From Azolla caroliniana (Eukaryota; Plantae; Polypodiophyta), in contig JBHGNT010000001.1 of assembly GCA_043228905.1 (NCBI GenBank), forward strand, positions 6,696,001 to 6,760,000: a DNA stretch of 64,000 nucleotides, written 5' to 3'. The notes beneath the pieces are model-generated. The model made no database searches, was not told the origin of the DNA, and saw only the letters and a program-made list of their open reading frames with translations. Every line of letters starts with the position of its first letter. Positions within the stretch are counted from its first letter, which is position 1. Both the position numbers and the translations under genes were made by a program. Below, piece after piece: positions 2,916 through 50,303 of the stretch.

Positions 2916-2937
2916 CTTTCAACTCCTCTGCCGCCTC

Positions 2938-2955
2938 TTCACGTTGGGTTCACCA
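2938..2955 (-). promoter_or_regulatory. Primer-binding site complementary to the tRNA-Trp 3' end (one mismatch)
   Basis: Minus strand TGGTGAACCCAACGTGAA, 4 nt after the LTR end; plant tRNA-Trp ends ...TTCACGTCGGGTTCACCA (recalled). Confidence 0.8.
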
Positions 2956-2959
2956 AAGA

Positions 2960-3592: not shown

Positions 3593-4212
3593 ATGGGTGA
3601 AGATCCTCTCGGGGAGTGCGGAGGCGCACAACCTACAGGTGAGAGCGTCCAACGGATTTACATTGCTCCAAGGGCTAGGGGATGTCGACCTAGAAGTGTT
3701 GGCAACAACGATGTCCCCATGTGAATCCTTGTCCCGCAAGCTTGTGTTCTCCACCCCGATGGAGATGCAACCACAACAGGTACCGTCCACCCCGAAGGAG
3801 ATGTTGACAAAGGCCCCCCTCAAGATGGAACATGAATGTGGTGGTGACCTTAGATTAGTGAAGTCGTGGATCCGAACGGGCACGATCAAGGGAAAAATAG
3901 GTAGACCATCACCTGGTTTGGCCTCTCTGTGCTAGAGGGGTGCAGGATATGCAACCGCTTAGGAGCCAAACTATTTCGCGGGAACCATTTAAAGTAGGCC
4001 GGGAACGACATGCTGGGAATCCCTTAGGGGCTCTCCAATCTACTGTGGAATCCCTACCCCCAGAAGTAGATGATAGTTTGCCCCCTAACATGGGGGTTGT
4101 CATGAATAGTACTAAAACAGAGAGAGAATTAGTACTAGAGAAGGGAAGTACTATTAGTACTAAGAGGACGGGACTACGTAAGACTCCCGAAAGAGGAAGA
4201 GAGAAAAGGAGA

Positions 4213-7200
4213 GAAAGAAAGAAAGAAAGATGTATTAACGTCTTCTAAGGCCAAATTTGGCCCATGAGACAATTGGTTTACAACAATAGAGTATTTATCC
4301 AGTCATCATAACTAAAATAAAATTAAGTAAAAAAATAGAACTTAAACTAAAAGAGTTCTAGTAGTGTACAATATGTAGTATACTCGAAAGTGACTATACA
4401 CTAAGCCTAATTTTATTTCCACCCAAGCCTCTCGAAAAGAAGTGGGGGGTCAAAGGGTCTTGATGTGGGTTCCAATGTAGAGAGTGCCCTCGCCATGGCT
4501 TCTAGGCGGTGTAGCTCACGTTCCCTTATTTTCAATATTGCTTCCACATCACGTTGAGTTGCTTTGAAACCTGGCACCCGAGGACGTCTGGTTCTTCTCT
4601 GGTTTTCTGCCTCATCAATGGAAAGGCCGAGTGGTGCAAGTGTGTCGGCATTCGTTGTCTCCTCAGGTTCCTGAAAAACTGCATTTGTTACATGTTCGTG
4701 ATCATTAGCAACATTATTGTCAACATTTTGTAATTTATTCTCTCTGTGTTGTTTTAGCTCTAGAATGTATTTGCCTAATTTCTTTATATCTAGAGTATCT
4801 AATAGTTTGGGGAGGGTGGGAGACGGACCAAGTATGTCTTGGTATTTTGCCCTTATCTCGGCATAGGTTGGACACTTGCATGTAAAGTGGTACTCATCCT
4901 CTATCTCTATGTGGCATAACCTACATATCCTTTCCTCCCTAGGGACTCCACTAGTACGGCCATTTTCAATCTCAAGTTGGTGAGATGATATTCGAAGTTG
5001 TCCAATGGCAACCCTTAGTGCATGTGGTAAGAATACATCTAGATATTTTGGCCGCGTGATAAAACCTAACTCAGAGAAGTGCATGAATTGTTTCTTATAG
5101 TACGACATTTTAGATGGGAGTGGCTCTAGTGGGGTGATCCATTTACACCGAGTGTAAATTTGCCATATTTCTTGGCGTATTACTTTATTGCGGTTCTCAT
5201 GAGAGATTAAGGTGTTATCACTCGTGTGGTTGTACCTAAGGGAAGGTAGGTTATTAATGTCTAGACCATTCGCAAGAAGCCAACTCACCATCATGCCATA
5301 CCATGAGCTAGTATAGCCGGACTCATACAATGATCGAGAGGCCTTAAAGGCTTGATGAGATATTCTATCATGTGGTTGGCTATGTATCCTATCAATGAAG
5401 ACTACAAGTTGAAAAAGTGCCTCTACTAGCATTGGGGGTAACGTGAACTCGGCCCTAATAATGTCATGTGGTACAGTCGATTTGCTTCGGAGTTGGCGTG
5501 ATAGCATCATCAGCAATGGTCTCTCTAATTGCGTCCACATGAAGGATGGTAATCCTGGAGCCCAAACCGCTGATGCATACATGAGGGAGGGGGTCACTAA
5601 TGAGTCAAAGAGCCACCCTTTAGTCCGTGGCTCTTGAAAGTGTGCTTGGTGGCATTGTCTCTCTAGGAGTGAGAGGGATGCATGTCCTCTCGTGAGTCTA
5701 TCCTTCGCTGCCTGTGTCATCGAAAATTTACCTGAGCGGGCACTAAAAGTGACTCCGAGATAGACGTACGATTCAACCACCTCGACTAGGCTATGGGAGA
5801 TAGTTAGGTGACACTTAGCTCTAACTTGGGCCGATGTGTGGAAGATAAGGACTTTCGTTTTCCCTAGATTCACTACCAAACCTCGTTGTACACAAAAGTC
5901 ATCTAAGGCATTAAGGTGCCTCTGTAGGTCGTGTTCGGATTCAGAGAGCAAAACTATGTCATCCGCATAGAGCAAGATACGAACCTGCGTATCCCCAAGG
6001 ACCACTCCGGTGCCTCCCTCACGAGCAATAAAATCTGTGATCTCATCAATGTAGATCCCAAAAAACGTCGGTGATAGGGGGCAACCTTGTTTTACACCAA
6101 TAGTTCTAGTGAAATGATTGGATAGGCCACCTGGGCATCGGACACACCCGGACACTTGTTCATATAGTGCGTAGATGGCCCATACCATATCATCTGGTAT
6201 CCTCAAGCTTTTAAGTCTATCAAACAACCGCTCTCTAGGGACTGTGTCAAAGGCTTTGCGGAAGTCCACAAAACAGCAATATAATTTCTTCTTGCGAGCC
6301 TTAGTTTGGTCAATTAGGCATTTAAGTGTGAAGATATGATCAATAGTGGAGAAGGCTCGTCTAAAGCCAGCTTGTTCAGGTGCACGAAGGTTTAGGGTCT
6401 CCATGTAGTCGCTAAGCTCTGCTTCCATTACTGCACCATATAACTTAGCAAGGGTATGGCCTATCATAATGGTCCTATATGTATTTGGGTCCATGGGGAC
6501 CCCCCTTTATGTATGGGGGCCACTGTATTCATAGTCCACTGTGGTGGAAAACCCTCTGCAAGGGCACGATTGAAGATTAGAGTTAGCAAGGGAGCTAGGC
6601 ACTCTCTCGCATATATAATGTGTTCTGCTCGCAATCCTGTGTGGTCCATGGACTTCCTATGTTGTAATTTCTGTATGACCTTCATGACCCTAGAGGTCGT
6701 GAAAAGTGTCCCCGTGGTAGGCCGGGGTGTGGAAGGCATTGGAAAGGGTGGTTGGTTTGGGATTTGGTAAAGTCTCTTTGTATATGTGTGCCAAGTTTCG
6801 AGATCTTCGATGGGTGTTTGTGGTCTTGGCTCCCGTAGTCTCTTCCATGCCGTGGCGCAATCGCTACTCATGAGCATATGGTAGAGTTCCCAGTATTGGG
6901 ATGCCTCCCACGCTCGTCTCTTACGACGTGTCATCTTACGCATTTCTTTGCGAGCTTGTATGGAGGTAATACTACCATTGAGTTGCAATACTGTAAGTTG
7001 TCTATGTAGGTCCCTACAATCCTCGTCATACCATTTATTTTGTGGCATTGGTCTTGATCTACCTTGATTTGAGTGTTTTGTATATGGGAAACTGCTAGCT
7101 GCTGTGGAGTGAAGGATATGTGTGAGTTTTGTACTAAGGCTTTCTAACGGTAGGGAGGGATCAATGGAGGGGAGATGGGCCTGAACATGTTGAGAGTATA

Positions 7201-7257
7201 TGTCAGAGAGCTCATGTGTGAAATGTATTGTGGTGTGATGGCATGGTTGACTAGACA
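4213..7257 (-). mobile_element. 5'-truncated RTE-like LINE with a (TTTC)n tail, inserted in the (GA)n tract of LTR B
   Basis: RT ORFs 6464-7048 and 4413-6494 joined by one frameshift; 3' end reads ...TTAATACATCTTTCTTTCTTTC; flanked by GA repeats. Confidence 0.88.
4413..6494 (-). CDS. LINE reverse transcriptase with C-terminal CCHC zinc finger
   Basis: Motifs QAGFR, FVDFRKAFD, GVKQGCPLSP, LYADD, YVYLG and CRLC...EDEYHFTCKC. Confidence 0.88.
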   Translation of the reverse strand: MDPNTYRTIMIGHTLAKLYGAVMEAELSDYMETLNLRAPEQAGFRRAFSTIDHIFTLKCLIDQTKARKKKLYCCFVDFRKAFDTVPRERLFDRLKSLRIPDDMVWAIYALYEQVSGCVRCPGGLSNHFTRTIGVKQGCPLSPTFFGIYIDEITDFIAREGGTGVVLGDTQVRILLYADDIVLLSESEHDLQRHLNALDDFCVQRGLVVNLGKTKVLIFHTSAQVRAKCHLTISHSLVEVVESYVYLGVTFSARSGKFSMTQAAKDRLTRGHASLSLLERQCHQAHFQEPRTKGWLFDSLVTPSLMYASAVWAPGLPSFMWTQLERPLLMMLSRQLRSKSTVPHDIIRAEFTLPPMLVEALFQLVVFIDRIHSQPHDRISHQAFKASRSLYESGYTSSWYGMMVSWLLANGLDINNLPSLRYNHTSDNTLISHENRNKVIRQEIWQIYTRCKWITPLEPLPSKMSYYKKQFMHFSELGFITRPKYLDVFLPHALRVAIGQLRISSHQLEIENGRTSGVPREERICRLCHIEIEDEYHFTCKCPTYAEIRAKYQDILGPSPTLPKLLDTLDIKKLGKYILELKQHRENKLQNVDNNVANDHEHVTNAVFQEPEETTNADTLAPLGLSIDEAENQRRTRRPRVPGFKATQRDVEAILKIRERELHRLEAMARALSTLEPTSRPFDPPLLFERLGWK

Positions 7258-7521
7258 GAGAGAGAGAGAGAGAGAGAGAGCGAGGACGAGAGAGAGAGAG
7301 AGAGATGATAACAAATGATATATTATATGAAGAGTAAGTACAAAATAGCTATGAGGCTTAAGACTGGTGTTGAACCAATTGGGTTCGAAATAATACCTTG
7401 TGCATCCTTTTATAGTGTTCTCAGCAGTAGTCCTAAAGCTTCTAGAATGTTCCAAAGAAATCTGGAATATACATTAATTTTCTATAGTAAAACTTAAATG
7501 AAAATAATATCTTAAGTATTA

Positions 7522-7593
7522 CAATAGATAATGTAATGGTCAAGAGCTCGACCCATATAACATAAGGTCATGGCTTCGAGTCTTGCCATATCA
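7522..7593 (+). ncRNA. tRNA-like Pol III cassette in the 3' LTR of B (mutated copy)
   Basis: A box TAATGTAATGG 7529-7539 and B box GCTTCGAGTC 7573-7582; homologous to 16379-16450. Confidence 0.5.
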
Positions 7594-7598
7594 TGACG

Positions 7599-9658
7599 CT
7601 ATCCTTCCCTTACGACGAGTGTAACGAGTCGGCATTGATTGAGGATCGGGTTTGTCCGGATACTGTCGGTGGAAATCAGCAAGAAGATCCAGAGCATTGG
7701 CGACATGCTCGACGGGTTCCCGAGCCAAACGACCAAATAATAAAGTTTGTTGCGAACGAACTTGGAGTCGAGGATGGCAACAACTTCATACTTCGGGCCG
7801 ACGTCCAACTCAAGCGGGGGCGGCGGTGGTGTAACACGATCTGGAATAGTGTTGGCCTTATAAGGTTCAAGAAGAGAACTATGGAAGACCGGATGTATCT
7901 GAAGGTGTGAATGAAGATCAAGGCGGAATGTGACATCATTAATCTTACCGGTAATATGGAAATGACCGAGTCGTCGATAATCCAATTTGTCACACGGTCA
8001 AGTAGTCTTGATGTGACGACGTAAGAGCCATACTCGATCTCCGATGGCAAAAGAGGAGGGAAGCCGATGACGATCCACATAAGTCTTCTGATCAGGTCGA
8101 GGAGTGAATAGCATTATTATAAGCAAACTCCGCAAAGTGGAGAATATTAGCCCAATCGTCTTGTTGGTAACTCAGAAAACACTAGAGGTATTGTGCGAGC
8201 ATTTGATTTGTTCGTTCCGCCTGCCCTTTAGTTTGGGGATAGTAACCGGAGGAGGGGTTGCAAGAGACCTTGAGCATCTTAAAGAGATGCTTCCAAAATT
8301 TGGAGACAAATTGAGGTCCTCGGTCACTAATGATACTGTCTGGGAGGCCATGATGCCGAAATACCTCACGCATGACAAGGGTGGCGGTTTCTTCACTTGT
8401 GATGGCCTTAGTACAAGGCACAAAATGTGTCATCTTAATATATTGATCGACGACGGTTAAGATAGCATCGAAACCCTTTAAGACTGGAAGATCTGTGATA
8501 AAATCAAGACAAATGGACTGCCATGGCTTACTTGGAATTGGTAAGGATTCCAACAAGTCATATGGATGATGTCGTGGCATCTTTGCTCGGCAACAAGCAT
8601 CACAGGTCCGAACATAGTCGTCAACAAAACGTCGCATATGGGACCACCAAAAAGATCGTTGAACTAGATCCAACGTCTTAGTACTACCGAAATATCCCAT
8701 TGTATGGGTGTCATGACAATTTTGGACGATTTGAAGGCGACAAGAGCAATCGAGAACATATACAAGCTTTTTAAAGAATAATAAACCATCATGATATTCG
8801 AATTGTCGGTAGTCCATACCTGGTTGTTGAGACTGGGAATAGGATGCCCGAGAGGTATCAATTTGCGCTAGAATGGCTTGAGCAAAACTGTCCGTCTTCA
8901 AGTTGGCACGTATGGCATTGATAATCCGGGAATCCAGTGGAGTGTGAAAAATCCGTGTTGTGTGCAAACGTGTTGGTCCCAAGATTACCTGCTTTTGATT
9001 ATCAAATGTTGGATCACCAAGACGAGGTGCAAGATATGAACGTCGTGATAGTGCATCTGTTATTCCTTGTTGCTTCCCCAGCCGATATGTGATTTTGAAG
9101 TAAAAAAGCGTGAGGAATTGGGCCCACCGAGCTTGCCGTCGATTTAGTACACGAGCGTTCTAGAAATAAGCAAGTTTTTTATGATCACTGAAGACGATGA
9201 CATGATGTGGAGAGCCCTCTAAGAAGTGCCACCATTGCACAAATGACCTGAAGTCCTTCTAATAACTCCTTGTCATGTATTTCGTAGTTCCACAAGATGT
9301 AACTTTTCTTTATCTCCTGGTTGTGAAAGGATGCTACCAAGGGTGAAATCCGATGCGTCGGCCTCCATGATGAATGGTTTTTTTGTATCCACATGAGCTA
9401 GAATAGGAGCTGATGTAAAGGCTGTCTTAAGATGCATAAAAGTCATGTCCGCTTCATTGGACCAAAGAAATGCATGTTCCTTCTTGGTAAGCTGTGTGAG
9501 AGGCAAAATAATCTTCGAGTAATCTTGTATAAACTTGCGGTAGAAGTTAGCAAAGCCTAGGAAACATTGTACATCTCGTAACGAACATGGAGTTTGCCAC
9601 TCTAACACAGTTTTGACTTTAGCTAGATCCATGGAGATGCCCTTTGAGGAGATGACGT
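7599..9658 (-). pseudogene. pol: RT C-terminus, RNase H, integrase and chromodomain of element B (frameshifted)
   Basis: FLGFANFYRKFI, EADASDF, HHCC (CHD...CDAC), ISDRGPQF and chromodomain-like YEVVAILDSK...YYLVVWLG. Confidence 0.88.
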
Positions 9659-10387
9659 TGTCGTGCCTTTCGGCTCCGGATCGTTTGCGTGAGTCGGGTG
9701 GGAACCGCTGGGGTTTTGGACTAGGAAGAGGAGAGTTTTAAGGCTAATAAGAATATAAATATGTTGTAAGAAAGAGTTATAGCAAACTCGTGAATCCCAC
9801 GAGTGTATTGTATTAGATTAATCAATATGAATATAAGAATATAAACTTCGGTTGAAAGAGAATGATATAGAATCCTCGTGAATCCCACGAGTATAGTTTA
9901 TTAATTGGTGTTTTTTAGAAACATATCCAGTTTCCAAATATTTTTCACACACAATTACATTGTGCTCCCCATCCTTATGTAGTGATGAGGAAGTCTTAGT
10001 AATCCATGCTTTTTCTCTAACTATAGACCCCATGCTTTTCCTATAGATAGACTATATGCTTTATCTAAAGTGATCATGCTTTTTTCTAACTTGTGCGTTT
10101 TTTATCATGCACGCTAGATGTGTATGTGTAGCTTTTTCTTTTGTTATGCGTTTTTCTAATGTTTATCCTAGCGTGAATTTACCTTTCTATGTGGGACATC
10201 TATACTTTAACACTAATGAAATGCTAGTGTAATGGTAAGACATTACATTATTAACATGGAGGTGCAAGGTTCGAATCTTGCCCTATGCATGTTCCATTTA
10301 TTTTGCTATTTTCTTCTATTTCTTCATTTTTTATTGAATCTAATACTATATACGTTTTTCACGTAGTGTACAAAATACACTACGACA
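9659..10387 (-). repeat. 3' LTR of element C
   Basis: TGTCGT...ACGACA; repeated at offset 2487 (identical spurious ORF translations at 9818 and 12305). Confidence 0.95.
10218..10296 (+). ncRNA. tRNA-like Pol III cassette in the 3' LTR of C
   Basis: A box TAGTGTAATGG at 10225, B box GGTTCGAATC at 10268, D stem GTGT/ACAT, T-arm-like stem GCAAG/CTTGC, and T-runs from 10297. Confidence 0.65.
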
Positions 10388-10388
10388 C

Positions 10389-12107
10389 TCACCCCCTCCA
10401 AACCCGCACATCCTCCGGTATGTGCCGAAGTTGTTGGTGTTTGTTAGTCTCCTCCGTCCGGTCTCTACCCGATTGGTTTCGTTGCTGGCTCGTAGTACCC
10501 TCGACTTCTCTTGTTATGTTGACTTTGTCTCTCCATTTGGAGCACATCCATTCTTTCCACCCGAACCATTGTCGACATCCGATCCACCATAGTCTTCGTT
10601 CGCTTTTTGCATGGCCCGCTTGGTCCTTGTCATCCGCGGTAGTATCTTTTCTTGCCCTCTTTCTTTTCTTCATTAATCTCGACTTCTTTTCGGATTTTCG
10701 GTTTAGTCGGATTAGCTTACTTCCGATTCGGTCTCGTCGGATCGTCTTTCGTTTAGTTCGGCTTCCTTTCCGATTTGTATTCGATCGATCCGGACTCGGT
10801 TGATCGGTTTTTACCGATTCAGTGCTCTTTCGGGTCGGTTTCTTTTCTTTTCTTTTCGTCCGGATTTGCTTTCTTTTCTTCGTTTTCACCTGCCTTGTCC
10901 GGTTCGACTTTCGGCACTTCTTTCCGTTGTTCGCCACGTAGGTCCTCCGATATGTGCTCGTTGTTCGGTCCTCGTGTGGTTGTAATGCATGCTTCTTTTC
11001 TCGCCGTAGCGCGTGCTTCTTTATTCGCCATAACACGCGTTTCTTTATTCGCCGTAGAGCGTGCTCTGTATTACGCGCTTCTCCCGTCGTAGAGCCGACC
11101 TCCGCATTGTCGCACTTTCTTTTAGATTGGAATTTCGGATGGATCATTTTCCATCCGAACCGACTTCCGACTTTACCTTCCTTGTTGCCACCTCCCGTCT
11201 CTCCGGTCTCACGTTGGTTCTCGGACACAACCGCCGAAGTCTCTAGAATTAGTGGGTAGGAATCCTCGGTATTATCATCTTCCGTTGTTTCACCCATAGC
11301 CATGTTCTCCTTGGCTATCTCTCCTTCGTATGCATCGGCTTCGACCTTCGTTTCGTTGCCGCCACTTTCCTTATCTTCGGTGTTATGTCGACACCCGGGC
11401 TCCAGTACCGAAGTCTCCGAAACAATGGTGAAGGAATCCCTTCGTTCGTGCTCATTTACTTTGTCTTCCTCGTTGCCCTTCCGGTCCTCCACTTTTCCAC
11501 CGACACATTCCGTCTCTCCGGTTTCACGTCGGTGCACGGGCACAGCCGCCGAAGTCTCTGGAACCGGTGTGGGGATACCCTTTCGTCCTCGATCTTCCTC
11601 CTCCTCGTCCTTTGTTGGCCTCGACTTTGGTTCGGTTTTAAGCTCCCCTTCAATGTCGACTTGCGACTTTTCATGCATCTCCGAACCCTTCCGCATCAAG
11701 CTCTCCTTCGGTGGTAGTCGGTGGCCGCTTTTCACCCACTGTTGACCGCCGTTCGTGGACCATGTCCTCGTCCGCTTCGGTCTTAGATAGTCATATGTGT
11801 CTCGTATAGCTTCTTCAAAGGACTCCCACATCGGGCTTTGTTGTCGTATCTCGTGGATTCTCTCTTGAAGCTCATCCGTAGCCACCCGGTTGAAAGATAA
11901 CACTTGCAATCTTTCTGAGATACCATATCGCAACATCTCCATTTTGTAGTCACGTAGATAGCGTGACACGTCCTTTCCATCGAATTGCCCGTTCTGTTGC
12001 ACGAGCCGTTGTACTACTGTCGTGATCTCCGACATCTCGCGTTGTTCTTGTAGCATTCTCTCGAACATCATCATCATCATGTTCATCGCCTCTTGTTGAT
12101 TCTCCAT
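10389..12107 (-). CDS. gag: Gag-derived protein with a long acidic then basic low-complexity tail
   Basis: An open frame fills the whole internal region; first ATG at 12107. The N-terminus GQFDGKDVSRYLRDYKMEM resembles element A Gag (GRFGGKDATSYLEAYWAEM). Confidence 0.75.
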   Translation of the reverse strand: MENQQEAMNMMMMMFERMLQEQREMSEITTVVQRLVQQNGQFDGKDVSRYLRDYKMEMLRYGISERLQVLSFNRVATDELQERIHEIRQQSPMWESFEEAIRDTYDYLRPKRTRTWSTNGGQQWVKSGHRLPPKESLMRKGSEMHEKSQVDIEGELKTEPKSRPTKDEEEEDRGRKGIPTPVPETSAAVPVHRRETGETECVGGKVEDRKGNEEDKVNEHERRDSFTIVSETSVLEPGCRHNTEDKESGGNETKVEADAYEGEIAKENMAMGETTEDDNTEDSYPLILETSAVVSENQRETGETGGGNKEGKVGSRFGWKMIHPKFQSKRKCDNAEVGSTTGEARNTEHALRRIKKRVLWRIKKHALRREKKHALQPHEDRTTSTYRRTYVANNGKKCRKSNRTRQVKTKKRKQIRTKRKEKKPTRKSTESVKTDQPSPDRSNTNRKGSRTKRKTIRRDRIGSKLIRLNRKSEKKSRLMKKRKRARKDTTADDKDQAGHAKSERRLWWIGCRQWFGWKEWMCSKWRDKVNITREVEGTTSQQRNQSGRDRTEETNKHQQLRHIPEDVRVWRG

Positions 12108-12123
12108 CTCCTTGCCACCCGCC

Positions 12124-12141
12124 TTCACGTCGGGTTCACCA
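12124..12141 (-). promoter_or_regulatory. Primer-binding site, 18-nt complement of the tRNA-Trp 3' end
   Basis: Minus strand TGGTGAACCCGACGTGAA, 4 nt from the LTR end. Confidence 0.85.
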
Positions 12142-12145
12142 ACTG

Positions 12146-12874
12146 TGTCGTGCCTTTCGGCTCCGGATCGTTTGCGTGAGTCGGGTGGGAACCGCTGGGG
12201 TTTTGGACTAGGAAGAGGAGAGTTTTAAGGCTAATAAGAATATAAATATGTTGTAAGAAAGAGTTATAGCAAACTCGTGAATCCCACGAGTGTATTGTAT
12301 TAGATTAATCAATATGAATATAAGAATATAAACTTCGGTTGAAAGAGAATGATATAGAATCCTCGTGAATCCCACGAGTATAGTTTATTAATTGGTGTTT
12401 TTTAGAAACATATCCAGTTTCCAAATATTTTTCACACACAATTACATTGTGCTCCCCATCCTTATGTAGTGATGAGGAAGTCTTAGTAATCCATGCTTTT
12501 TCTCTAACTATAGACCCCATGCTTTTCCTATAGATAGACTATATGCTTTATCTAAAGTGATCATGCTTTTTTCTAACTTGTGCGTTTTTTATCATGCACG
12601 CTAGATGTGTATGTGTAGCTTTTTCTTTTGTTATGCGTTTTTCTAATGTTTATCCTAGCGTGAATTTACCTTTCTATGTGGGACATCTATACTTTAACAC
12701 TAATGAAATGCTAGTGTAATGGTAAGACATTACATTATTAACATGGAGGTGCAAGGTTCGAATCTTGCCCTATGCATGTTCCATTTATTTTGCTATTTTC
12801 TTCTATTTCTTCATTTTTTATTGAATCTAATACTATATACGTTTTTCACGTAGTGTACAAAATACACTACGACA
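12146..12874 (-). repeat. 5' LTR of element C
   Basis: Copy of 9659-10387. Confidence 0.95.
12705..12783 (+). ncRNA. tRNA-like Pol III cassette in the 5' LTR of C
   Basis: Same sequence as 10218-10296. Confidence 0.65.
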
Positions 12875-12878
12875 ACGT

Positions 12879-14087
12879 AGCCTAGAAATTCCACTTGCTT
12901 GCAGTCAAAGCTACATTTTTCCAGTTTGGCATAAAGACCATTCTCTCGGAGTCATTTTAGTACTAATAGTACATGAGAATCATGCTCTTCCTGGTCTTTG
13001 AATAAATCAATAGATCATCCAGATAGATGATCAAATAGATATCCAAGAGGTCTCTGAATATATCATTTTCCATGTGTTGGAAGACTGTGGGCACATTGGT
13101 TAGACCGAACGACATAACGGTATACTTGAAGTGCCCATATTGGGTGCGAAAAGCGGTCTTCCATTTGTCTCCCGGTCGGATCTGCATGAGGTTATACGCT
13201 CCTTGTAGGTTGATTTTTGTAAAAAACTTGGCACCATTTACTCGCTCTAAAAGACTTGACATAAGGGGAAGTGCATACCTATTCCTGATGGTGACGTTAT
13301 TCAAGCCGCGATAATCAATGACGAGACGAAGTGATCCATCTTTCTTCTTAACAAAGAAAATGGGTGCACCGGCCAGAGATTTTGAGTGACGAATAAACCT
13401 GCTTGCCAAATTCTCTTCTATGTAGGCTCGAAGAACTTCTAACTCGGTTGGTGACAAGTTGTAAATTGGTCCCCAGGGTAGCTCTGTTCTTGGTTGTAAA
13501 TCGATGGGACAATCATAGGGATGATGATGAGGAAGAGTACTGGCTTTTACCTTGTCAAATACATTGGCATAAGGATGATATTTCGCCGGAAGTTGAACTA
13601 AGGATTCCTTCTTAGTATTGCTGGAAGGATGTACTGATATTGCAAACAGAAACATTGCCTCCTTGCATCCTTCTTCGCGTAATTGATGGAGTGAAATGGT
13701 CGAAACTCGATGAGTAGATTCTCGGGGTTGTCGATACCAGACTTCTCTTGTTCTCCAATCTATGTCTAGATTATGTAATTCAAACCAAGGTAATCCTAGG
13801 ACAATGGGATGCTCTGGACTACTAATTATATTAAATGATACCACACACACAAAACTACCTAGAACAACCTGAATGGGTTCTGACTCTTCTATAATATTCC
13901 CTGAAGCAATGAGACGACCATCAATGACTACTATAGATGCAGGGCAAGGAAGTTTTCTTAAGGATATCTGAGAAGCTTGGGCAAAATTCTGATCCATGAA
14001 ATAGGAATTGGCTCCGGAATCTAAAAGTGCTAAGACGTGTATTGGAGGGGTACTTTTAGTACTAACCATGACTTGGGTTAAGAACAC
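12879..14087 (-). pseudogene. pol: Protease and RT of element B
   Basis: ALLDSGAN, IVLGLPW, KKKDGSLRLVIDYRGLN and IYLDDLLIYS; frameshift near 12990. Confidence 0.9.
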
Positions 14088-15404
14088 ATTGCTAACTTAG
14101 AGGGAATGGAACCACTGGTTGCACAGATCTAGGGTTGTCCCACCAAACGACTCCTATTTTGGCTGGACTCAGTCGTTTAACTCTTCGTCTAATTAACTAA
14201 AGATTTCAAATTTGTTTGAGATTCCTGGGCTATCAGTACTATTAATACTTTCAAACACTCCTAAGGGAATTGACTCGGGTTTAGTACATGCTACGATTTG
14301 ATTTACCTGTCTTCTTGGCGTATGGGAACAATTGATTGCAATATGCCTTGGTCTGCCGCAATAAAGAAATAATCGGTTTGCACGTCGTCATTGCTTTTCT
14401 TCTTCCGATAACAGGCCACATCGACGCATGGTGTCGATCTCCATCGGTGTCAGAGTATTTGCCTGAGATACATCTTGTGCAAACGGTTTAGTTGCGATTG
14501 AGGCATAGGTGGGCTCCGTCCTAGGGTGTGGTATTTGCAATTGACGTTTCGAACGTCGTTCGAAAAGGCGGTTGTCGCATTGGACCGCTCGACTGATTGC
14601 CTCTGTAAGAGACTTTGGTTATTCGGGGAAGGTTAAAAAGAAAATCTTTGACATCGTTTCGCAAGCCGTAGCGAAACTGCTCCATTAGTGCCTGATCATC
14701 CCAGGGGATATTTGAGGCAAGTAGACGGAAATCCGCCGTGTAGGCAGAGGCTGGACGATTGCCTTGACGTAATCGTCGGATTTTGTTGATCGCGATCCTG
14801 ATGTTGTCGGTATCTCCAAAGCAGGCTTTAAACTTGCTAATAAAGTCTTCAAAGTTATTAAGCAAGGGCGATTGTTTTTCTAGAAGCGGAGCGAACCATG
14901 CCAAGGCTGAGCCACTAAGCAGCGTGCCTATTAGGCCTACTCGGGATGCATCAATGGGGTATCGGGAAGGATGCATTTGAATGACTAGGCGTACCTGATT
15001 AAGGAATCCCCTAAATTGAGATCGCGTTCCATCGAATTTCACAGGAATTCCAATCTTGGGCTCTTTATGAAATCCTTGGGGACTTCATCCTTGTTGTTAC
15101 AACGCTACGATGGTTGCTTCGAATGTAACGCTAACTCCCCATGTTGTTGCTACATTTGTTATTTTTCTAGAGCGATTTGTTGAAGATCCCTAAAAATTGT
15201 TGGTTTTCTTGTTCCAATGCAATGGAATTTTCTTTTAGACACTGTAGCTCAGAAAAAACGAAATGATATTCTTGGGCGATGTCGTGACGATTTTCGGCTA
15301 CAGTGTGAAACCGAGTGAGACAAATAAACCAAGGATGTGCAACATTGCACATACACTTAGCAAATAAGCCTCCTAAGGCCTAGTGGCACTTGAGTTCATA
15401 CAGA

Positions 15405-15478
15405 GGGGTGCAAGCAAGGTTTGAACCTTGCACCTCTAAGATACAAGATGTTTGCCTTACCACTAGGACAACTATCAT
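15405..15478 (-). ncRNA. tRNA-like Pol III cassette in insert D
   Basis: Minus strand A-box-like TTGTCCTAGTGG (15471-15460) and B box GGTTCAAACC (15427-15418) within a GCAAGG/CCTTGC stem. Confidence 0.55.
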
Positions 15479-15550
15479 ATAGTGTAGATTTTATATATTT
15501 CCTTTTCATATACGAATTATAGACGAAACAACCATAGAAAACCATGTGCA

Positions 15551-15698
15551 CAAAACCATGGTTCTAAACCCATGGATTGTGCATGTCATAAGCAAAATCG
15601 TGTCCCCAAAACCGTGGTTCTAAACCCATGGATTGTGCATGTCATAAGCAAAATCGTGTCCCCAAAACCGTGGTTCTAAACCCATGGTTTTGTGCATG
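15551..15698 (+). repeat. 56-bp tandem repeat, about 2.6 copies
   Basis: Unit CAAAACCRTGGTTCTAAACCCATGGATTGTGCATGTCATAAGCAAAATCGTGTCCC starts at 15551, 15607 and 15663. Confidence 0.9.
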
Positions 15699-15997
15699 AA
15701 GAGAGCTATAAAAACCCTAGTGGAGCTTGTGTAAGGGGGGCTCAATATGTGATATCACCAACACCATTATCATCAATATAATTATATTTGTCTTTATCTT
15801 CTTTATATTTTTTTACTTCTCAAGTGTACAATCTTTCTTCTTCTCAAGTGAACAAATTTCATCTAATCTTACATTGATCGTCATCTCTTCGATAATTCTG
15901 TGAACGTCCTCCCCTGTCCAAGACCCCGATGGTCGCTCGAGTAGCACACGCACGCGCGAATCTTCGTGACAGCGCTAACAGTAGCCATAGTATTGGA

Positions 15998-16009
15998 AAA
16001 TTGGTTCAA
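15998..16009 (-). promoter_or_regulatory. Self-priming-type primer site of element B
   Basis: Minus strand TTGAACCAATTT, 2 nt after the LTR, with no TGG start; exact complement of AAATTGGTTCAA at 16238-16227 in the LTR. Confidence 0.75.
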
Positions 16010-16011
16010 AC

Positions 16012-16122
16012 TGTCAGGAATAGTACTAAAACAGAGAGAGAATTAGTACTGGAGAAGGGAAATACTATTAGTACTAAGAGGACAAGACTACGTAAGACTC
16101 TCGAAAGAGGAAGAGAGAAAAG

Positions 16123-16167
<45 letters not shown>

Positions 16168-16455
16168 ACAAATGATATATTATATGAAGAGTAAGTACAA
16201 AATAGCTATGAGGCTTAAGACTGGTGTTGAACCAATTTGGTTTGAAATAATACCTTGTGCCTCCTTTTATAGTGTTCGCAAGAGTAGTCTTGAAGCTTCT
16301 AGAATGTTCTAGAGAACTCTTGAATATACATTAATTTTCTATAGTAAAACTTAAATGAAAATAATATCCTACGTATTATAATAGATAGTGTAATGGTCAA
16401 GAGCTCGACCCATATAACATAAGGTCATGGGTTCGAGTCTTGCCATATCATGACA
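16012..16455 (-). repeat. 5' LTR of element B (444 bp)
   Basis: TGTCA...TGACA termini; TATAAAA on the minus strand at 16271-16265. Confidence 0.93.
16379..16450 (+). ncRNA. tRNA-like Pol III cassette at the outer end of the 5' LTR of B
   Basis: A box TAGTGTAATGG 16386-16396 and B box GGTTCGAGTC 16430-16439, starts 44 nt apart as in tRNA genes. Confidence 0.6.
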
Positions 16456-18346
16456 GGAGTCGGCCTCGGCTGCACAGGGTGACCTCCACTTAAGAGGAGG
16501 GGTCTGCATCTCGATTAGCGATCAGGCCCGTTACGAAGTAACATCACATGGCACGCTGGTGGCGGGTAGAGCCTTATATGTGCTTTTGAAGTGGAATCGC
16601 CTTCAGATTGGGGTGCTAAACATTTATGCCCCTAAATCTTCCCCTAGAGAGCAATCTTTTGGAGGATGTTAGTGACAACATTGCTTGATGCAAAGGCGTG
16701 GGTAATGGCCGGAGATTTCAACATGACTGAGCATCTGGGAGATAGGAAATGGGGGACCCAAATACCGCTTCATGGTGCAGAGTTGGACTCATGGGCTTTC
16801 CTAATTGGAAAAGAGTGATAAGAGCTATGAGCCTTCCCCAACAATGGAGGAATTGCACTTCTGCACTCTATCGGACTGCTACCAGTAGCGTGTTGGTATC
16901 AGGTGCTAGGGGCCCCGCCTTCCAACTACATCGCTCAGTGAGGCAAGGTTGTCCCCTAGCCCCATATCTCTATCTACTTGTAACCGAGACTTTCTCTACC
17001 TACTTACAAGCACCAAACATTGGACTGAGGGGATTGCCCATTCCCAATGTGACTAAGGATCTTTTGTTATTTGAATATGCCGACGATACGGTCCTTTTCT
17101 CGTAGGGTGATGATGCAAATTTGCAACGAGCTGAACATCTTGTTGAAGACTTTTGTCAGGCTGCTGGTGCCAAGGTCAATTGGGATAAAACCCAAGGCCT
17201 CTGGTTCAACAAACAATAGAAGCTAAGGTGGCATGCCCATGCTGATTTTGCATGGGTCCCTGATGGGACGACATTCAAGTACCTCGGATTTACGATGGGG
17301 AGGGCAATCCCCAAGGGAGCGCAATTGTCCCATGTGCAAGCCAAACTAAGCAAGAAGTTGAACCAATGGAGCAGGTCTAAAGTATCTTTCACTGGTAGGG
17401 TTCTTATTGCGAACCAAGTGATGCTCGCCACCATGTGGCACTAAATCTCCCGTTGGATTATGGACCCTTAAGGTTTGCACGCGATTAAGGCTTCCATCAG
17501 GGGGTTTATATGGTCAAGAAAGGACAACCCGATGTCTGCCGCCAGAGTGTCATGGCATTGGTTAACACAACCATGGGCCAAAGATGGGCTTGGCCTCATA
17601 GACCCCTTAATGCAGAGCCGAGCATTGCTAGCCAAAATGGTGGTTCGATGCCTCCTACCATGTAAGGGGTGTTGGAAGGTTCTACTTCGCAATAGGTTGC
17701 AGGCAGGGACTCCCAAGTATGGTAGACCTTGGCCCGACTCCTTGAATTGGTGTTGCATGAGCAGAGTCCCACCCAAGATGGCTTGTCTTCCGGAGGAGAG
17801 GGTCACGAACTCCATCTTACGTGCATGGTGTCACATACGACATCATTTGGTCAAGCACACGCCGGAGACACTAATCGAGTGGTCTAGAAAACCTTTATTT
17901 TGGAACCCTCATGTGCGAACAAGTGACAACATGATGTTAGGGAAACTTAAGGGCCTAGCATGGGGAAAGCTGGCGCAAATAGGGCTCCACTCTATACATG
18001 ATTGGAGACGCACAATGGCTTTAGGAGGATCCCAGGAGGTCCCATTCCCTCCCCTCAAGGGCGCCATGAAAATGCGGAGATTGATTAGCTGAGGCAATTG
18101 ATAGGGTTCCGATGGGGGAGGTGAGAGAAGATGCTTGGTTCGGTCTCTTTGATGAGGCTGGAAGGGTTCAATTGTTGAAGTGCGTTAGTGGATTGGGAAG
18201 AGATACAATTTTTGGGGAGAGTCAGAGTATGGGCTCTTGGCACCCAATCCGCGTGGTGGCACAGGTTGGTAACATCTGAAAGACAGACCCAAATGTTGCT
18301 AAGGTGGAACCCATTGGAAGTTATGGGTATATGGTTGTCATCCCCT

Positions 18347-18576
18347 TGTCGAACTAGAATGGGTGTTACCCGTATAGGTATACGGGAGGGTTAAGTGTAA
18401 CGTGAAAGGTGTAATGTGGAATATGAAATGTGAATGTGTGAGTGTGTGAGTGTTAGGTGAGGTAAGTAGGTGTACCTACATCCATTCGGCTTTTTGTAAA
18501 GATCTTATATAAATTCTCACTCATGGGGCATGAAAATAGGGAATATTGAAGTTACCCACAAACTGTGTCTGTCTTG

Positions 18577-18663
<87 letters not shown>

Positions 18664-18704
18664 CGTTCTCTCTGTGCATCTCATCTCTCCTCTCACACTC
18701 GAAC
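18347..18704 (+). mobile_element. Probable solo LTR inserted in the L1
   Basis: Starts with TG, flanked by CCCCT (18342-18346, 18705-18709), has TATATAAA near 18505 and a long (TC)n; the terminal CA is missing. Confidence 0.55.
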
Positions 18705-19999
18705 CCCCTTGGGAGGGGGGTGGAACCGATCTTGGCTCCACCCCCCACCCATAAACAATGGGACCCAGGGGATTTCAGGTGGAAACATGATGGCAGATTT
18801 CGCCATTTCTTCGAGTACAACACTAAACTGGCCCAGGCTTTTCAACTGCAGCTAGACAGCCCCTTACGCAATGGCTAGCGTACATTGGGCATCCCTGATG
18901 AGGTGCTCATTACCTTTTGGAAGGGTCTCTGGTGTCTCAACATGCCAAAAAAGATAAAGTTTTTTTGGTGGCAAATCGGTCATAATGTGGTTCTCGTTGG
19001 CAAATGGCTAGGTAAACATGGCGGCCCGTTAGGCTACCGACTTTTCCATTCACCTATCGAGACTCTGAGGCATTTTCTGTGGGATTGCCCTCAAGCTCAA
19101 AAGGTATGGGATAGAGTGACTCGCCTCCTTGCGGCATGTGAAGTGGAAGGAACAACATTGTGGAGTGTTGTGGCATGGCTTGATCACTCCGTTGATAGGT
19201 GGACGGATGCCTTCAATGCGGATAGTTGGTGCTACGTATGCATGAGAGGCAAAATCACCAAGATTCGATTTGAGAGAAGCTTGTCGTCTGCGTCCCCTAG
19301 GTTCCCGGACATTTGGATGCTATTCGCAGGCTTCACCCTGTGGTATGTATGGAAAGCGCCATGCCTAAAGGTCTTTCAGGATCTGGTGCAGCCCCCGGAG
19401 GAAGTGATCATGGACATATGGTTTGTGCTTATCAACTGCCTACGAGGACAATTGGACAAGGTTTGCAGCCATTCCAATGACGTGGTTATTGCCCGTTTGC
19501 GCTTTTGGTAGAAATGGCGGAACACGCCTATGGTGACACAAGGAGGAAGTGGCCCGAGGGGGAACTACCAGCCCCCACGCTGGCTATTTCCGTCTCACTT
19601 ACCACCCTCCCTTCGTTGTTGACCCCCAAGAGTTGTCTCGTACTGGCCATCACTGAAGGGCACCGTTTTTAGCTATAGGTACTTACATTAAGTAGTCAGT
19701 CTGAAAGGCGATGTAACTAGTCTCATTTTCTTGAACTTGATCAGAGGGAGATTCCCTGATCTATGTATAAGCCCCCTTGTACATTCTCTTTGTAATAATC
19801 CTTCGTAACTAATGGGAAAGTAGCTTCTTTTTGGAATGGAAAAAAAAATACAATATTGTATTAAAAGAAATCAATATATATTGTAATTTCATTTTTTATT
19901 AGGGGAGGTTCCCCTAAATACACAATTCATTTTCTCGTTTACAAGATAATTGCACAAAAATAAGAAGAGTATGGTTCCTATTGGTTGAGTATTTAATAC

Positions 20000-22200
20000 A
20001 ACAGTAGATGAGCCAGCAACCTAATGCATTACAAGAACCTTATTGAGAGTGATACGATTAGTCTTCATTGTAAGCCTCTAAGTTGTGTCTATATTTGCTT
20101 GCTTATGAGTACATGTGCATTGGGCTTGCATCATACATAGGGTCGCCTTGCATCTAAAGGGGGTTCTTCATTTTGAACATGCAAAAGAAATGTTATGGAG
20201 GTATTTCCTAATCTTTGAGCAAAATATCCTTGGTGCTTGCTTGAGATGGTATACTGCTAATTTGAGCTAACGTATTGTGTTGAATGGGATTCCAACTTAC
20301 ATCTAGGGGCCAATTCCATGCACGATTCTTTCTCGAGATCTACTTAGAGGATGACACTCTTAACATTCATTTGATACCCCTTTGTTGGGATTCAAAAACT
20401 TGAGCTTTTTTTATTTGACAATTGTCAATTTTGCCACAAAAGCAAATGTCTCGTCATAGTCAATGTTGTGAGTTTGTGCATAACACTTGACAATGAGTTG
20501 AGCTTTGTATTTATCGACAATTCCATCCTAGTTGTATTATACCTTGTAGACACTACATTGAAAAATTGATGGCCTTCATGTGTGGTGGAGGTGAGACAAG
20601 GTCCCACATCTCATTGTCATAAACAACTTGTGTCTCTTCAACCATCCCTTTTACCCAAATACGACTACAAGCGTAAGTTGCACGTATTTACTGTGGCTAT
20701 ATTTTGCAACCAAATTCTTCTCATGAGTGTAACGTCATGATCACTCTTGTTCCTCATGTAGGTATTTCAAATGTCCTTAAGGTAAGTAAATTGAACAAAT
20801 AATCAATTGATGGATTGCACTTGCTCATGGTTGGAACCCTCACAATTGTCTTCATACTCATGTAGCTTTGATCTACCTTAGCCAAATCAAGCTATGGAAG
20901 TACCACATTGCAAAGTACAATAGTCAAGGTTGGAGGGTTCAACTAGACTACTCATAAGCTTAAAGTTGAATTGCATGGTGCAACATCCACGACAATGTCA
21001 AAATCTTCAACTATTGTGAATGTGGTCAAATTTGGAGAACACCATGATTTCATTTTATGAAGTATTACATTGTGGCCTACGAACCATGCATGTAGACATA
21101 TTGAAGCAAACATACTCCTTTTGCCCAAGCAAGTAACTTTTGAAAATGCACTTCTGAAACTTGGTTTGAGCTTTGTTCACACCCTCATCTAGGAAACGCA
21201 AAATGCATCCAAAAACTGTGTAATGTGACATATCCAGCTTCCTCTTATAATGATGCTAATACGGGTTCACACAATATATTGTCGTTGCAAGGAACCAATT
21301 TATCAAGAAGATTGATAAAGCAATTGCTTTGTGGCATGTTCTTCTCATTGACAATGGCTCAAACTACCTTCGTGATTTGATGATTCTTTTGTTGTGTTGC
21401 ACCATCTTGTTGTGGTGTGTACTTGCATGAGTGATTACAAAATCCTTTCACTTATTCTCCATGATTTATTATGTGATTGAGAGCACCTAAATCCATGAAG
21501 CACAAATAAGGAACCTGGCTCATGCTTGGCAAAATGGAGTTTGCATGCTTATGATTCATTACTAATATATACGTGCAATAATATTTGGAGTTGACAATGT
21601 AATTAGTAAGTTCATTACAGTCATTGTTGACATCACATTTGATCCTTTTGTGGCAATACACCTTGATGCACCCGACTTAATCCAATAATACCAATATTCT
21701 AGTTTGTGTTGGGTGGTTTCCTCCAACATTGAAGCTCCTAGTGCTACTTTGAAAGTTTTCTCTTCTATGTTCTCTTTGCTATGGGCATTGAAAACATATA
21801 TCATAGTTAGATGGAGTTCAACTCTTCGTGAGGTTGAAGCTTTTATGTGTTGTGTTGTCGGCGTAAATTTCTTCAACTTCTTTAATGCGTCCTTTTGTAT
21901 ATTGGACACTTCCCCCATAGAACACAAGTTGTGTTGTAATACATTACATGTTTCTCTCTTTGTTGTTATTCGGGATTGTGGATCCTGAACATATTTTCCA
22001 GATCGCCCTTAATGGATCCCAATAGTCTTTCGCCTTCTATTTCCATGATGCAAAGTTGTTGTGCTAAGGAAAATAATGTTATTTTTTATATAAAATATTA
22101 ATCATACCCAAATGTATGTAAGCAACATGGACATATTGTTTTGTGGTAAACCACCCTTTATAATGTAGAAATGACTAATGTCTAATGGGCTCATAATGTG
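20000..22200 (-). mobile_element. Highly decayed Ty1/copia remnant
   Basis: Protease-like DLGALNH near 21480, integrase TPQQDG near 21400-21420 and RT-like traces near 20400-20600; many stops. Confidence 0.55.

Positions 22201-27885: not shown

Positions 27886-27890
<5 letters not shown>
25125..27890 (-). mobile_element. 5'-truncated L1-type LINE, copy 1, between (TC)n tracts
   Basis: RT ORF 26646-27878 (WRPISL, LDIEKAYD, SVRQGCPVSP, ALADD), then 26037-26639 and a zf-RVT-like piece 25455-25748. Confidence 0.9.
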
Positions 27891-27947
<57 letters not shown>

Positions 27948-47832: not shown

Positions 47833-48770
47833 GAGGACTAAATCAATTGTTATAACTTCAAGTTCCTCAGCAATGCATTGATACTATTTATGAAAGGAAA
47901 TGATGGATCTTTGCATCAATATGTCAATTACCGAGGCCTTGACTACATCACTAACGAGAACCAATACCCATTGCCTCTTTGAAATCACCAACGAGAACCA
48001 AAGGAAACTGTAGACAAGGTGATACTTGTTAGGGTCACATGGTTTGACTATAAGACTTTGAATCATCTTTGGTTTTTATCATTGAGCAAGCTCAAACAAG
48101 ACAATGTGATGTATAAGAGGAGACATGGTTCATTAGGTAAGATGCGGGCGTGGGTTTGTCTATCCACATTGGGCCTGTTTGAGGAGCCATGGAAGTCAAT
48201 TTAAGGATAATGAGGCGAGATCATGTTGTTGAGAACTATAGCATTGATGTGGGTGCCCATAGAAGGTCTATAGGACAACCTCACGGGCGATGTTACCGAA
48301 AGAGATACTTCGACCATAATTGGGATGACTTGCATAGGTGATGCCGAACACCGACTAATTTGCTTGGGATTGGATGTCATTTTTTAGTTAGTGGGATTTT
48401 CATGTTTATAAATGAATGTGAAATTAGTGAAATGGGAAGTGGCACCATCAATAAACCAATGCATGGGCATGGATGTTGTTGAGGATAATGCAAAAGTTGA
48501 ACAAACAAAAGTCCAATCAAACCATGTCATGCAGTTAGCATGGACATGTAAAAGGGGAAATCCCCCTCCCTTCTCTCCCTTTGTATCTTAACCTATAATG
48601 GTAAATTGTGAGATTAACCAACTCTAAGGCTTTGTGTCGAAGGCTCAACTATCATATCTCTTTTTTTTCCCTAATTTTTTAGGTGACATTGTGGAATCAA
48701 GGGGTTGAATGCAAGACTTCCTGGTCTTTGTTGGACAACCCCATCAATTGAATTGAGCTACATTCATCCG

Positions 48771-48959: not shown

Positions 48960-50303
48960 TGTAGGATGCCCTCTTAGCCCACTGTTGTTTGCTATTGTTA
49001 CTCATCCCTTGTTAGTAATGTTATCAAGGCTTGCAACAAATGGTGACATTGTGGGTCTACACGTTCTGTCTAGAGGGCAACTCGTATCACAAGCTTTGGT
49101 TAATGATTCTTTCATGTTTCTACAAGCCTCATGAGAGAATCTTGAGAAGGGGATGCTTGTATGGAACCGATTTGCATTGGCTTCTAGATTACATATTAAT
49201 TGGAGGAAGTCTAGTCTCATATCATGTACTGAAAGGGATTTGGAATGTTTAGGATGGCAAGGATCCGTGGTGAAGAAAGACTCTATTTTTCGACAGTTGG
49301 GCTATCTATTAGGAATGAATGTTACAAATGGTCAATTTATTGAATGGATGTCTAGTAAGTTGAGGGATAAGTTCATGCATTAGAAGTCACAATCTCGGCC
49401 ATTTCATGTACGCTCGAAGGTTGTACAATGTATTATAGAACCCATGATATTATATTACTTGCCATTGTTGCCATGGGCAAAGAAGGCTTTGCATTCTATT
49501 TTGCAACCTCTTCAATATTTGTTGTGAAAGAAGAGGGATAAGACGGGAATCACTTGGGTTGTGTGGAATCATCTAGCAACCCCTAAGCACTTGGGGGAAA
49601 CTGGAATATTTAACTTATCTAATCATATGATGACTCATAGATTTTCATTATTACAAGACATGAGTTCAAACTCACATTCATGGATATCTATTGTTCAATA
49701 TTTCATAGTGAACAAGGGTTTAACACATGGGAGGACAATGATTAAGGCTTCATGGTGGCAATTATTGAATGGATGTATTTCAATTAGGGTTCCGGGCTCT
49801 ACACGTGTTCAACACTTGGTTATATCATGGCAAGAAGCACTCTTGTTATGTGTATGGAAACCATAATCTAGTAGAGAGCATTGTAATTCTTTGCAAAAAG
49901 TGTTGCTTGTGTCTTCCCGGTTATTATGTTGGCCAGGAAATGAGAGATTGCGATCTCAATTTAATCGTTTGTTTCGTTTGGGGGTCAAAGGGGTGGGGAG
50001 ATATAGTTGAGGCTCCATCTCAAATAATTTTGGAGTTTCGAACCCAAGACATAGTGCTTATATAGTGTAACAACTTACCACTAGGGTAAGGTACTTACAA
50101 AAAAACAAGAAAGAAAGAGAGGGAGAGAGAATATGTACTAAAGTTAAAAGGACTTCTTTTGTGGCATTGAGTTTGGAGTCGTGGAAGACTTTAGATCCCC
50201 ATAGATAGATAGATAGAAGGGGGTTCTATAGTTTGTTTGTAGTAAGTAAGTTAGTCATGGTGGTGTATTTTCTTTTGTAATGAAAGCCATTATTCACGAA
50301 AAA
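48960..50303 (+). mobile_element. Decayed L1-type LINE related to 25125-27890
   Basis: GCPLSPLLFAIVTHP and QALVNDS; 3' UTR 50130-50300 matches the reverse complement of 25125-25380. Confidence 0.85.

Follow-up and report, generated by a model that had tools for sequence, protein, structure and literature searches.

An antisense tRNA-type promoter cassette conserved in the long terminal repeats of coding plant retrotransposons

The 64,000-nt stretch of DNA analysed here ("the window") holds a nest of retroelements in a seed-free plant. Two long terminal repeat (LTR) retrotransposons, elements B and C, and one solo LTR, element D, carry in U3 a tRNA-derived cassette in which an A box and a B box stand at tRNA spacing, the sequence layout of a type 2 RNA polymerase III (Pol III) promoter, and which reads outward, antisense to the element. 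We found that this antisense cassette of coding plant LTR elements is real, conserved and recurrent, and that it differs from the known tRNA promoters of LTRs. Its boxes, their spacing and tRNA positions 44-47 persist, with spacers ~35% identical.

Antisense A-box/B-box cassettes and their conservation

The original prediction placed five such cassettes in the window, with box spacings of 43-44 nt, and all five are present (Table 1): the A-to-B box spacing is 44 nt in B and 43 nt in C and D. The cassette of the B 5' LTR ends 16 nt inside the LTR end and is antisense to the element; that of the B 3' LTR is a decayed copy with one mismatch per box. No T4 stop lies downstream of the B box within the B 5' LTR, nor past the B box of the B 3' LTR in the stretch examined. 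In the 5' LTR of C the cassette lies 110 nt inside the LTR end, with a T4 23 nt past the B box. The D cassette, ~138 nt inside the LTR end, is antisense to D, and the orientation guessed for D is borne out by its solo-LTR structure and polypurine-tract context (see below). A 12-mer shared by the B 5' LTR and C and a 14-mer shared by C and D were also found as predicted.

Counting pairs with at most one mismatch per box and a spacing of 42-45 nt gave seven in the window against a mean of 0.15 (maximum 1) in 40 third-order Markov simulations; three perfect pairs were seen against none in the 40 simulations. The box consensus strings used are in part those given in the accessible text of PMC10886601 (here and below, statements on published work refer to the accessible parts of the papers cited). 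The sixth of the seven pairs is a mirrored sense A box in D (15376), and the seventh is a free copy of a tRNA-like repeat (50035-50088). The D cassette region (15369-15478) is an imperfect palindrome about the B box, hence the second, sense A box. This mirrored box is not conserved: one run has a different letter at the conserved G, and another subfamily is without it.

To survey relatives of B, the C-terminus of the integrase was used for a scan of 8 of the 64 parts of a metagenome collection, from which the best 79 of 532 confirmed stretches were taken; two viral loci bring the total to 81. Because the 3' LTR follows the integrase C-terminus, the cassette played no part in choosing the loci whose U3 was scored. 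One scoring rule was applied to all 81 loci, of which 20 (18 with enough U3) come from one assembly series and 61 (55 scored) from other sources. LTR starts were called automatically; L011 and L075 were corrected by hand, and several among the other loci are probably wrong. An antisense pair at two mismatches or fewer was present in 13 of the 18 series loci, with two more at three mismatches and three beyond that; the latter comprise a true absence (L016), a locus with no real LTR start (L022) and a degenerate cassette with a small duplication (L031). Among the other loci the corresponding counts were 0/55 at two mismatches or fewer and 3/55 at three. A sense pair at two mismatches or fewer was found in none of the 73 scored loci. 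A profile search of all 523,831 bases, which is independent of the LTR calls, gave 19 matches at E<0.001, all of them LTR cassettes from the window or from series loci (6 close relatives, 12 training rows and C twice); loci from other sources gave nothing below E 1. Some of the series loci are closely related: L006 and L007 are near-identical, and L003, L008, L010, L021 and L039 are close to B or L073.

Seven of nine carrier loci examined (L003, L006, L009, L011, L012, L043 and L075) have a TATA box 185-278 nt into the LTR, in most cases with a self-primer-type motif after it; no match was found in the remaining two. Since the TATA box is separate and the cassette faces the wrong way, the cassette is not the element's promoter. 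The viral contigs yielded two distant integrase loci, with no match to the cassette pattern and six chance matches to a Trp primer site.

For the comparison of cassettes, near-copies were dropped, leaving 13 dereplicated sequences that include C, D and the misregistered L031. Mean pairwise identity, inflated at the boxes because their columns anchored the alignment, was 0.59 for the A box and 0.71 for the B box; it was 0.50 for the B-proximal spacer and 0.35-0.37 for mid-spacer, upstream and downstream DNA. Invariant across the 13 are T8, A14, T54, T55 and A58 together with the unanchored A44, G46 and T47. Box spacing is steady at 43-45 nt, and the distance to the LTR end varies from 16 to 138 nt. 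Among shuffled sequences (n=600), none reached one mismatch, four reached two and 19 reached three.

A second view of conservation came from contigs of four differently labelled organisms aligned to the C lineage at 80% identity, which gives sums and not copy numbers. Coverage has two peaks of similar height, one over the B-box block and one at the LTR terminus, i.e. the integrase-attachment end: ~592,000 and 586,000 at the two peaks against 19,000-64,000 in most flanking bins in run X1, and ~29,000 at each peak against <2,300 elsewhere in run X20. Some contigs link the two peaks through different spacers, and in a distant organism B-box coverage equals attachment-end coverage though the remaining LTR is lost. 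The conserved block of C spans a whole T-arm-like hairpin (12741-12779). Loose ends revealed C and D subfamilies with unrelated spacers and the A box in exact register, and for B they revealed A-box variants of the consensus type. For B, no bin is covered as deeply as that of the cassette in any of the four runs, although in one run its lead is small. In the variant tables, from which 40 of 55 and 40 of 140 rows provided the figures, the A-box variants listed (40 of the 55 rows) fall at consensus-free positions and the B-box variants are CpG decay.

The proposed outward-facing, antisense module on the U3 side, copied with its element, is thus what we observed, and it is conserved beyond its flanks. 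The original prediction had set against itself a picture of SINE (short interspersed element) copies with their own target duplications, random orientation and no excess conservation at the boxes; we found 13 antisense loci and no sense locus, with boxes more conserved than flanks.

Lineages and origin of the cassette

The original prediction counted three different, independent LTR families, a claim that did not hold: to judge from their sequences, C and D form one Phygy-like lineage, so that the window has two lineages rather than three. Other D-type LTR copies are preceded by C's polypurine-tract region (a C-type loose end at 15278), which puts D on the plus strand as a sister family of C. 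Phygy prefers NCGN target sites (PMC6317226), and C (ACGT) and D (GCGA/GCGC), two insertions only, agree with this preference; for C, which has no pol and hence no reverse transcriptase (RT) or integrase, and for the solo LTR D, the Phygy-like label is a putative one. There were no Phygy-like relatives among the fetched loci, and the evidence on this lineage therefore comes from C, D, element A and the contig tables. The LTR (about 2960-3595) of element A, a coding Ty3/gypsy element that shares its primer-site type with C and whose gag is related, is free of the cassette, with a best score of five mismatches. The cassette is thus not universal in the C lineage, and element A is a natural negative control and a possible helper lineage for C.

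Among the chromoviruses, the carriers fall into two clades in a careful tree built from 34 of the 81 rows, and a quick tree of all 81 agrees. Clade I has 13 rows (11 carriers and two without U3; support 97/93). Clade II has three rows (support 99/97), and its sister L016 and the next three relatives lack the cassette. A single origin within the chromoviruses was rejected, since a union of the carriers failed the approximately unbiased (AU) test (p=0.0011 under LG+G4), with L040 counted as lacking the cassette though its U3 is only 21 nt and with L031 and L012 coded as carriers by eye. Clade II uses a 12-nt A-box type that is also found in a free repeat of the window (48700-48762), which is 68% identical to L043 and L075 and 40-52% to the remaining cassettes.

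With C/D, the two chromovirus clades make three occurrences, to be accounted for by separate captures, LTR swapping or fewer gains with losses. We suggest, from the trees and sequence comparisons, that tRNA-derived, SINE-like repeats of the host probably gave rise to the cassette by capture on at least two and probably three occasions, or else that it spread by LTR recombination. One gain followed by several losses, or LTR swapping, may be the alternative history. The 12-mer identical between B and C was considered as proof of direct transfer and rejected: B's closest relative and B-family variants differ in A-box letters.

Free tRNA-like A/B repeats occur outside the window too (L008 at 262-318, 385-440 and 481-533; L007 at 1009-1066 and about 6330-6390). 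The free repeats, those of the window included, come in at least two flavours, often adjoining (GA)n runs, and are possibly undescribed SINE families and the donors of the LTR cassettes. Nested in L008, at 3787-3860, is a second LTR end, of the L031 type, whose cassette is degenerate.

What the cassette may do

Two simple explanations were rejected. The cassettes are not functional tRNA genes, for neither the cloverleaf nor the score thresholds are reached: ARAGORN reported no tRNA gene at default settings and C at a relaxed threshold only; C scored 13.4 bits against positions 8-63 of the Rfam tRNA model, below the cut-off of 29; B had no Rfam tRNA match, and an Rfam scan of 5000-20000 returned no relevant family. 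Nor are they ordinary SINE insertions, since the cassette sits in both LTRs and across families. No SINE tail or own target duplication was seen by eye in the aligned LTR contexts, and the B LTR terminates 16 nt past the B box.

The original prediction offered an insulator, an enhancer or a small RNA as candidate functions. We give not quite an even chance to the reading that a tRNA-derived A/B module, antisense at the outer U3 and kept as its surroundings diverged, acts as a portable boundary that binds TFIIIC. On this reading TFIIIC, with or without Pol III, would bind the module, and TFIIIB would assemble in the AT-rich stretch that separates the A box from the Pol II promoter. Flanking chromatin and the Pol II promoter of the element would then be kept apart by a boundary that slows silencing on its way into U3, acts as a roadblock to divergent Pol II transcription, or does both; with the cassette facing backward, Pol III would stay away from the site where the element's transcription starts. 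As U3 is copied to both LTRs in each round, every new insertion would end up with one module on its outer 5' edge and a second on the inward side of its 3' LTR. In yeasts, Pol III complexes serve as barriers and insulators and as roadblocks to Pol II (PMC2040200; PMC4228148). What the cassettes share is what TFIIIC reads plus AGGT, which favours a DNA-level TFIIIC/Pol III boundary. The wider proposal, that autonomous and gag-coding elements of at least three separate lineages in one plant group have convergently taken up a host tRNA-type promoter at the outer U3 as a TFIIIC/Pol III boundary against silencing, with very many TFIIIC sites likely spread over a fern genome as a result, is more tentative still.

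Several points weigh against a boundary. It is argued from analogy, and the box identities, as noted, are inflated by anchoring. Position 10 is a non-consensus T in many cassettes. Mutation of the B-box CpG affects about one quarter to two fifths of contig depth, so that many genomic copies are probably methylated and dead. The D and T stems are partially paired (35/52 and 43/65 over the 13 cassettes), and with AGGT at positions 44-47, which is no classical promoter box, this hints at constraint at the RNA level. Related elements do without the cassette (element A, L016 and all 55 other loci), and the positive loci come from one assembly series, perhaps from few hosts. The fission-yeast barrier is orientation-independent (PMC2040200), so that the strand bias calls for a further supposition, namely that sense copies do harm. 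Pol III complexes are also able to repress nearby Pol II promoters (PMC4228148).

It is rather unlikely, though this is the strongest of the rivals, that the antisense Pol III RNA is itself functional, whether as a short structured transcript or as a read-through into the integrase end that tunes silencing or copy number or serves as a decoy. C has perfect boxes and a T4 stop, and its predicted RNA of ~85-95 nt folds into two hairpins (z about -3 to -3.8); its conserved block covers the T-arm-like hairpin. B has a fold z of -4.4, the cassettes as a set show partial D/T pairing and the invariant AGGT, and foamy viruses make Pol III microRNA (miRNA) precursors from A and B boxes in their LTRs (PMC3993851). 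Across the 13 cassettes, however, there is no common fold: z ranges from +0.2 to -5.6 and the hairpins are not alike. Pairing is 38/91 in the acceptor stem and 26/65 in the anticodon stem, where ~38% is expected at random, and the better-paired D and T stems both overlap the boxes. T4 lies 1-120 nt past the B box in 10 of the 13 loci and is absent from the stretch examined in the other three, as it is from the B 3' LTR. Acceptor and anticodon pairing at chance, together with an erratic or absent T4, is more in keeping with a role of the DNA itself than with a defined RNA product. Moreover, chromovirus LTRs end 16-49 nt past the B box, so that transcripts from the 5' LTR would end in random flanking DNA.

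We consider it improbable that the cassettes descend from heads of tRNA-derived SINEs that inserted into U3 in the backward orientation, with sense ones removed, and now travel as neutral relics with successful families. Similar free repeats do occur in the host (50035-50088, 48700-48762, L007 and L008), the cloverleaf is decayed, copies in L012, L021 and L031 are degenerate, and close relatives lack the cassette. Yet boxes, register and spacing persist over an integrase divergence of ~0.5 changes per site and more, with spacers and flanks at background. The same slot is occupied in separate clades (AU p=0.0011), and in a distant organism whose LTR is otherwise lost, the B-box block and the attachment end have matching coverage.

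Pairing of the genomic RNA with host tRNAs is about as improbable. Here the tRNA complement in U3, by the polypurine tract, would pair with the D and T loops of a tRNA for packaging or strand transfer. The antisense orientation is the one required, the conserved positions are those common to tRNAs, and both C and A use a tRNA primer; a pairing role has also been proposed for the tRNA-Lys3-like U3-R sequence of HIV-1 (Piekna-Przybylska 2010, cited in PMC6468702). The B lineage uses no tRNA primer, and the module is equally conserved in such self-primed chromoviruses; at least three A-box flavours and free spacers are unfit for any one tRNA, and shuffled sequences pair with the element's own leader as well as the cassette does. 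Very unlikely, finally, is an activator in which TFIIIC and TFIIIB open a nucleosome-free region and bring TBP to a back-to-back Pol II promoter: AT-rich DNA (67-94%) upstream of the A box does face that promoter, ~115 nt away in B, but in D the TATA-like box is ~240 nt off, and this distance differs from family to family, and yeast tRNA genes mostly repress neighbouring Pol II promoters (PMC4228148).

Known systems and the host elements

The suggestion that such a module had not been described in plant LTRs stands in part. tRNA-derived promoters in plant LTRs are in print, in the sense orientation and in non-coding elements: the closest known system, beside which Cassandra and Ajax may be set, is Helenus/TRIMp3 (Kojima 2024, PMC10886601), which has tRNA-derived sequence in its LTRs, with one family in Selaginella. 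Like the present cassettes, the Helenus sequence occurs in both LTRs, is conserved at boxes A and B and forms no functional tRNA, and it has probable multiple origins from SINE heads (PMC10886601), as we propose here. Unlike Helenus elements, which are non-coding miniature retrotransposons with terminal repeats (TRIMs) of 311-1263 bp (PMC10886601), the elements studied here are coding and 3-8 kb long (B has gag-pol, and C is 3.2 kb with a gag-like open reading frame (ORF)). The tRNA part of Helenus is sense (checked in the supplement for Helenus-1_SMo and Helenus-2_ToGe) and presumed to drive the element's own transcript (PMC10886601); here the tRNA part runs antisense in B, in C, in D and in 13 of the 18 series loci, with no sense case, a Pol II TATA box is present, and the cassette faces out. 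The accessible text of PMC10886601 mentions that "not a few" Repbase LTRs hold tRNA-like parts, of which TRIMs alone were analysed. A literature search, with subscription papers and Repbase largely outside its scope, found no account of coding LTR elements of plants in which a conserved tRNA-type promoter sits antisense at the LTR end, and the accessible parts of PMC2864245 and PMC13570524 have nothing on such a module.

Other systems are alike in part. The Pol III miRNA units of foamy viruses are A/B units in the LTR of an autonomous retroelement, and the RNA of C is predicted to form two hairpins, but theirs are defined precursors with conserved terminators (PMC3993851) and here neither fold nor terminator is shared. 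Yeast tDNA and TFIIIC barriers likewise have a Pol III complex at the edge of a domain, as proposed here, but they are host loci with tested function (PMC2040200; PMC4228148), as opposed to a predicted site carried by a transposon. The HIV-1 U3-R sequence resembles the cassette as a tRNA-complementary U3 sequence in genomic RNA, but it matches the primer tRNA, whereas the chromoviruses here are self-primed and have several box flavours. B shares with Tcn1 the chromodomain-type integrase end and self-priming, and C and D share with Phygy the 4-bp NCGN duplications; no LTR Pol III module is described for either in the accessible parts of PMC6317226 and PMC2864245, and relatives from other sources lack the cassette.

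The finding touches the question of how LTR retrotransposons remain active in silenced, repeat-rich plant genomes. The module is small and mutable, has a known host partner in TFIIIC and is present in some clades and absent from their sisters, which makes it a testable system. If the sites are bound, the elements would distribute Pol III-type boundary sites over the genome. They could also inflate counts of tRNA pseudogenes, as Helenus does in rust fungi, and would extend the capture of Pol III promoters beyond non-coding TRIMs, which such a promoter drives, to coding elements, which the cassette cannot drive.

Table 1. Positions of the cassettes, host elements and associated features in the window
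Feature	Position	Strand	Description
B 5' LTR cassette	16386..16439	+	A box 16386-16396, B box 16430-16439; no mismatch
B 3' LTR cassette	7529..7582	+	A box 7529-7539, B box 7573-7582
C 5' LTR cassette	12712..12764	+	A box 12712-12722, B box 12755-12764; no mismatch
C 3' LTR cassette	10225..10277	+	same as C 5' copy; B box 10268; no mismatch
D cassette	15418..15470	-	A box 15470-15460, B box 15427-15418; one A-box mismatch
Free tRNA-like A/B repeat	50035..50088	-	outside recognisable LTR; two related copies in L008
Second free tRNA-like repeat	48700..48762	-	decayed; most similar to clade II cassettes
Element B	4098..16455	-	Tcn1-like self-primed chromovirus; decayed; nests C, D and a LINE (long interspersed element)
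B 5' LTR	16012..16455	-	444 bp; U3 starts at 16455
Pol II TATA-like box of B	16265..16271	-	~115 nt inside A box, opposite direction; from sequence
B self-primer segment	16226..16238	-	predicted RNA 5' end; complementary to 15998-16011 just inside LTR
GAAnnTTC array	16292..16309	undefined	between B cassette and TATA box
Element C	9659..12874	-	young, gag-only, non-autonomous, Phygy-like Ty3/gypsy
Element D	15280..15971	+	692-bp solo LTR in B leader; U3 at left
Element A	60-3595		coding Ty3/gypsy; primer-site type of C; gag related to C

Element B encodes gag, protease-RT, RNase H, integrase and an SH3/chromodomain end (Pfam matches to gag, RT, RNase H, integrase and SH3). Its LTRs are 92.5-92.7% identical, and its target duplication (GGGGT/GGAGT) is 5 bp with one mismatch. 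The 3' LTR (4098-4230 and 7257-7598) is interrupted by a LINE with an RT ORF (4231-7256), which sits in a (GA)n run. The self-primer segment lies ~27 nt downstream of the LTR TATA box, the Tcn1 self-priming layout, and self-priming is typical of Tcn1 (PMC6317226). On these sequence features B appears to be a Tcn1-like self-primed chromovirus in a likely fern; among plants, the accessible parts of PMC2864245 and PMC6317226 list Tcn1 for mosses and lycophytes only.

GAAnnTTC arrays between cassette and TATA box occur in B and in 5 of the 13 carrier loci (L003, L006, L012, L043 and L073), and arrays of three units were found in none of the six non-carrier loci checked. We take these arrays to be heat-shock-element-like, and the families that have them may be heat-inducible.

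The 729-bp LTRs of C are 100% identical, and the element (3.2 kb) is flanked by the 4-bp target duplication ACGT. Its tRNA primer site (12125-12141) is presumably of the tRNA-Trp type. C has no pol: a single reading frame (10389-12224), with a long charged low-complexity tail and no Pfam match, spans the stretch from primer site to polypurine tract, and it is 23.5% identical over 102 aa (E 7e-10) to the gag-protease ORF of element A. For D, whose 4-bp duplication is of the NCGN type, the empty-site joint (15277-15975) is present in contigs from other DNA.

Elsewhere in the window, duplicated LINE segments with RT ORFs, ~92% identical, lie at 25730-30880. A host gene at 57336-57749 encodes a glycerophosphocholine acyltransferase whose best named matches are from ferns and then liverworts, which makes a fern the likely source of the window, and another host gene, at 51078-56122, is one that we take to be basic helix-loop-helix (bHLH)-like.

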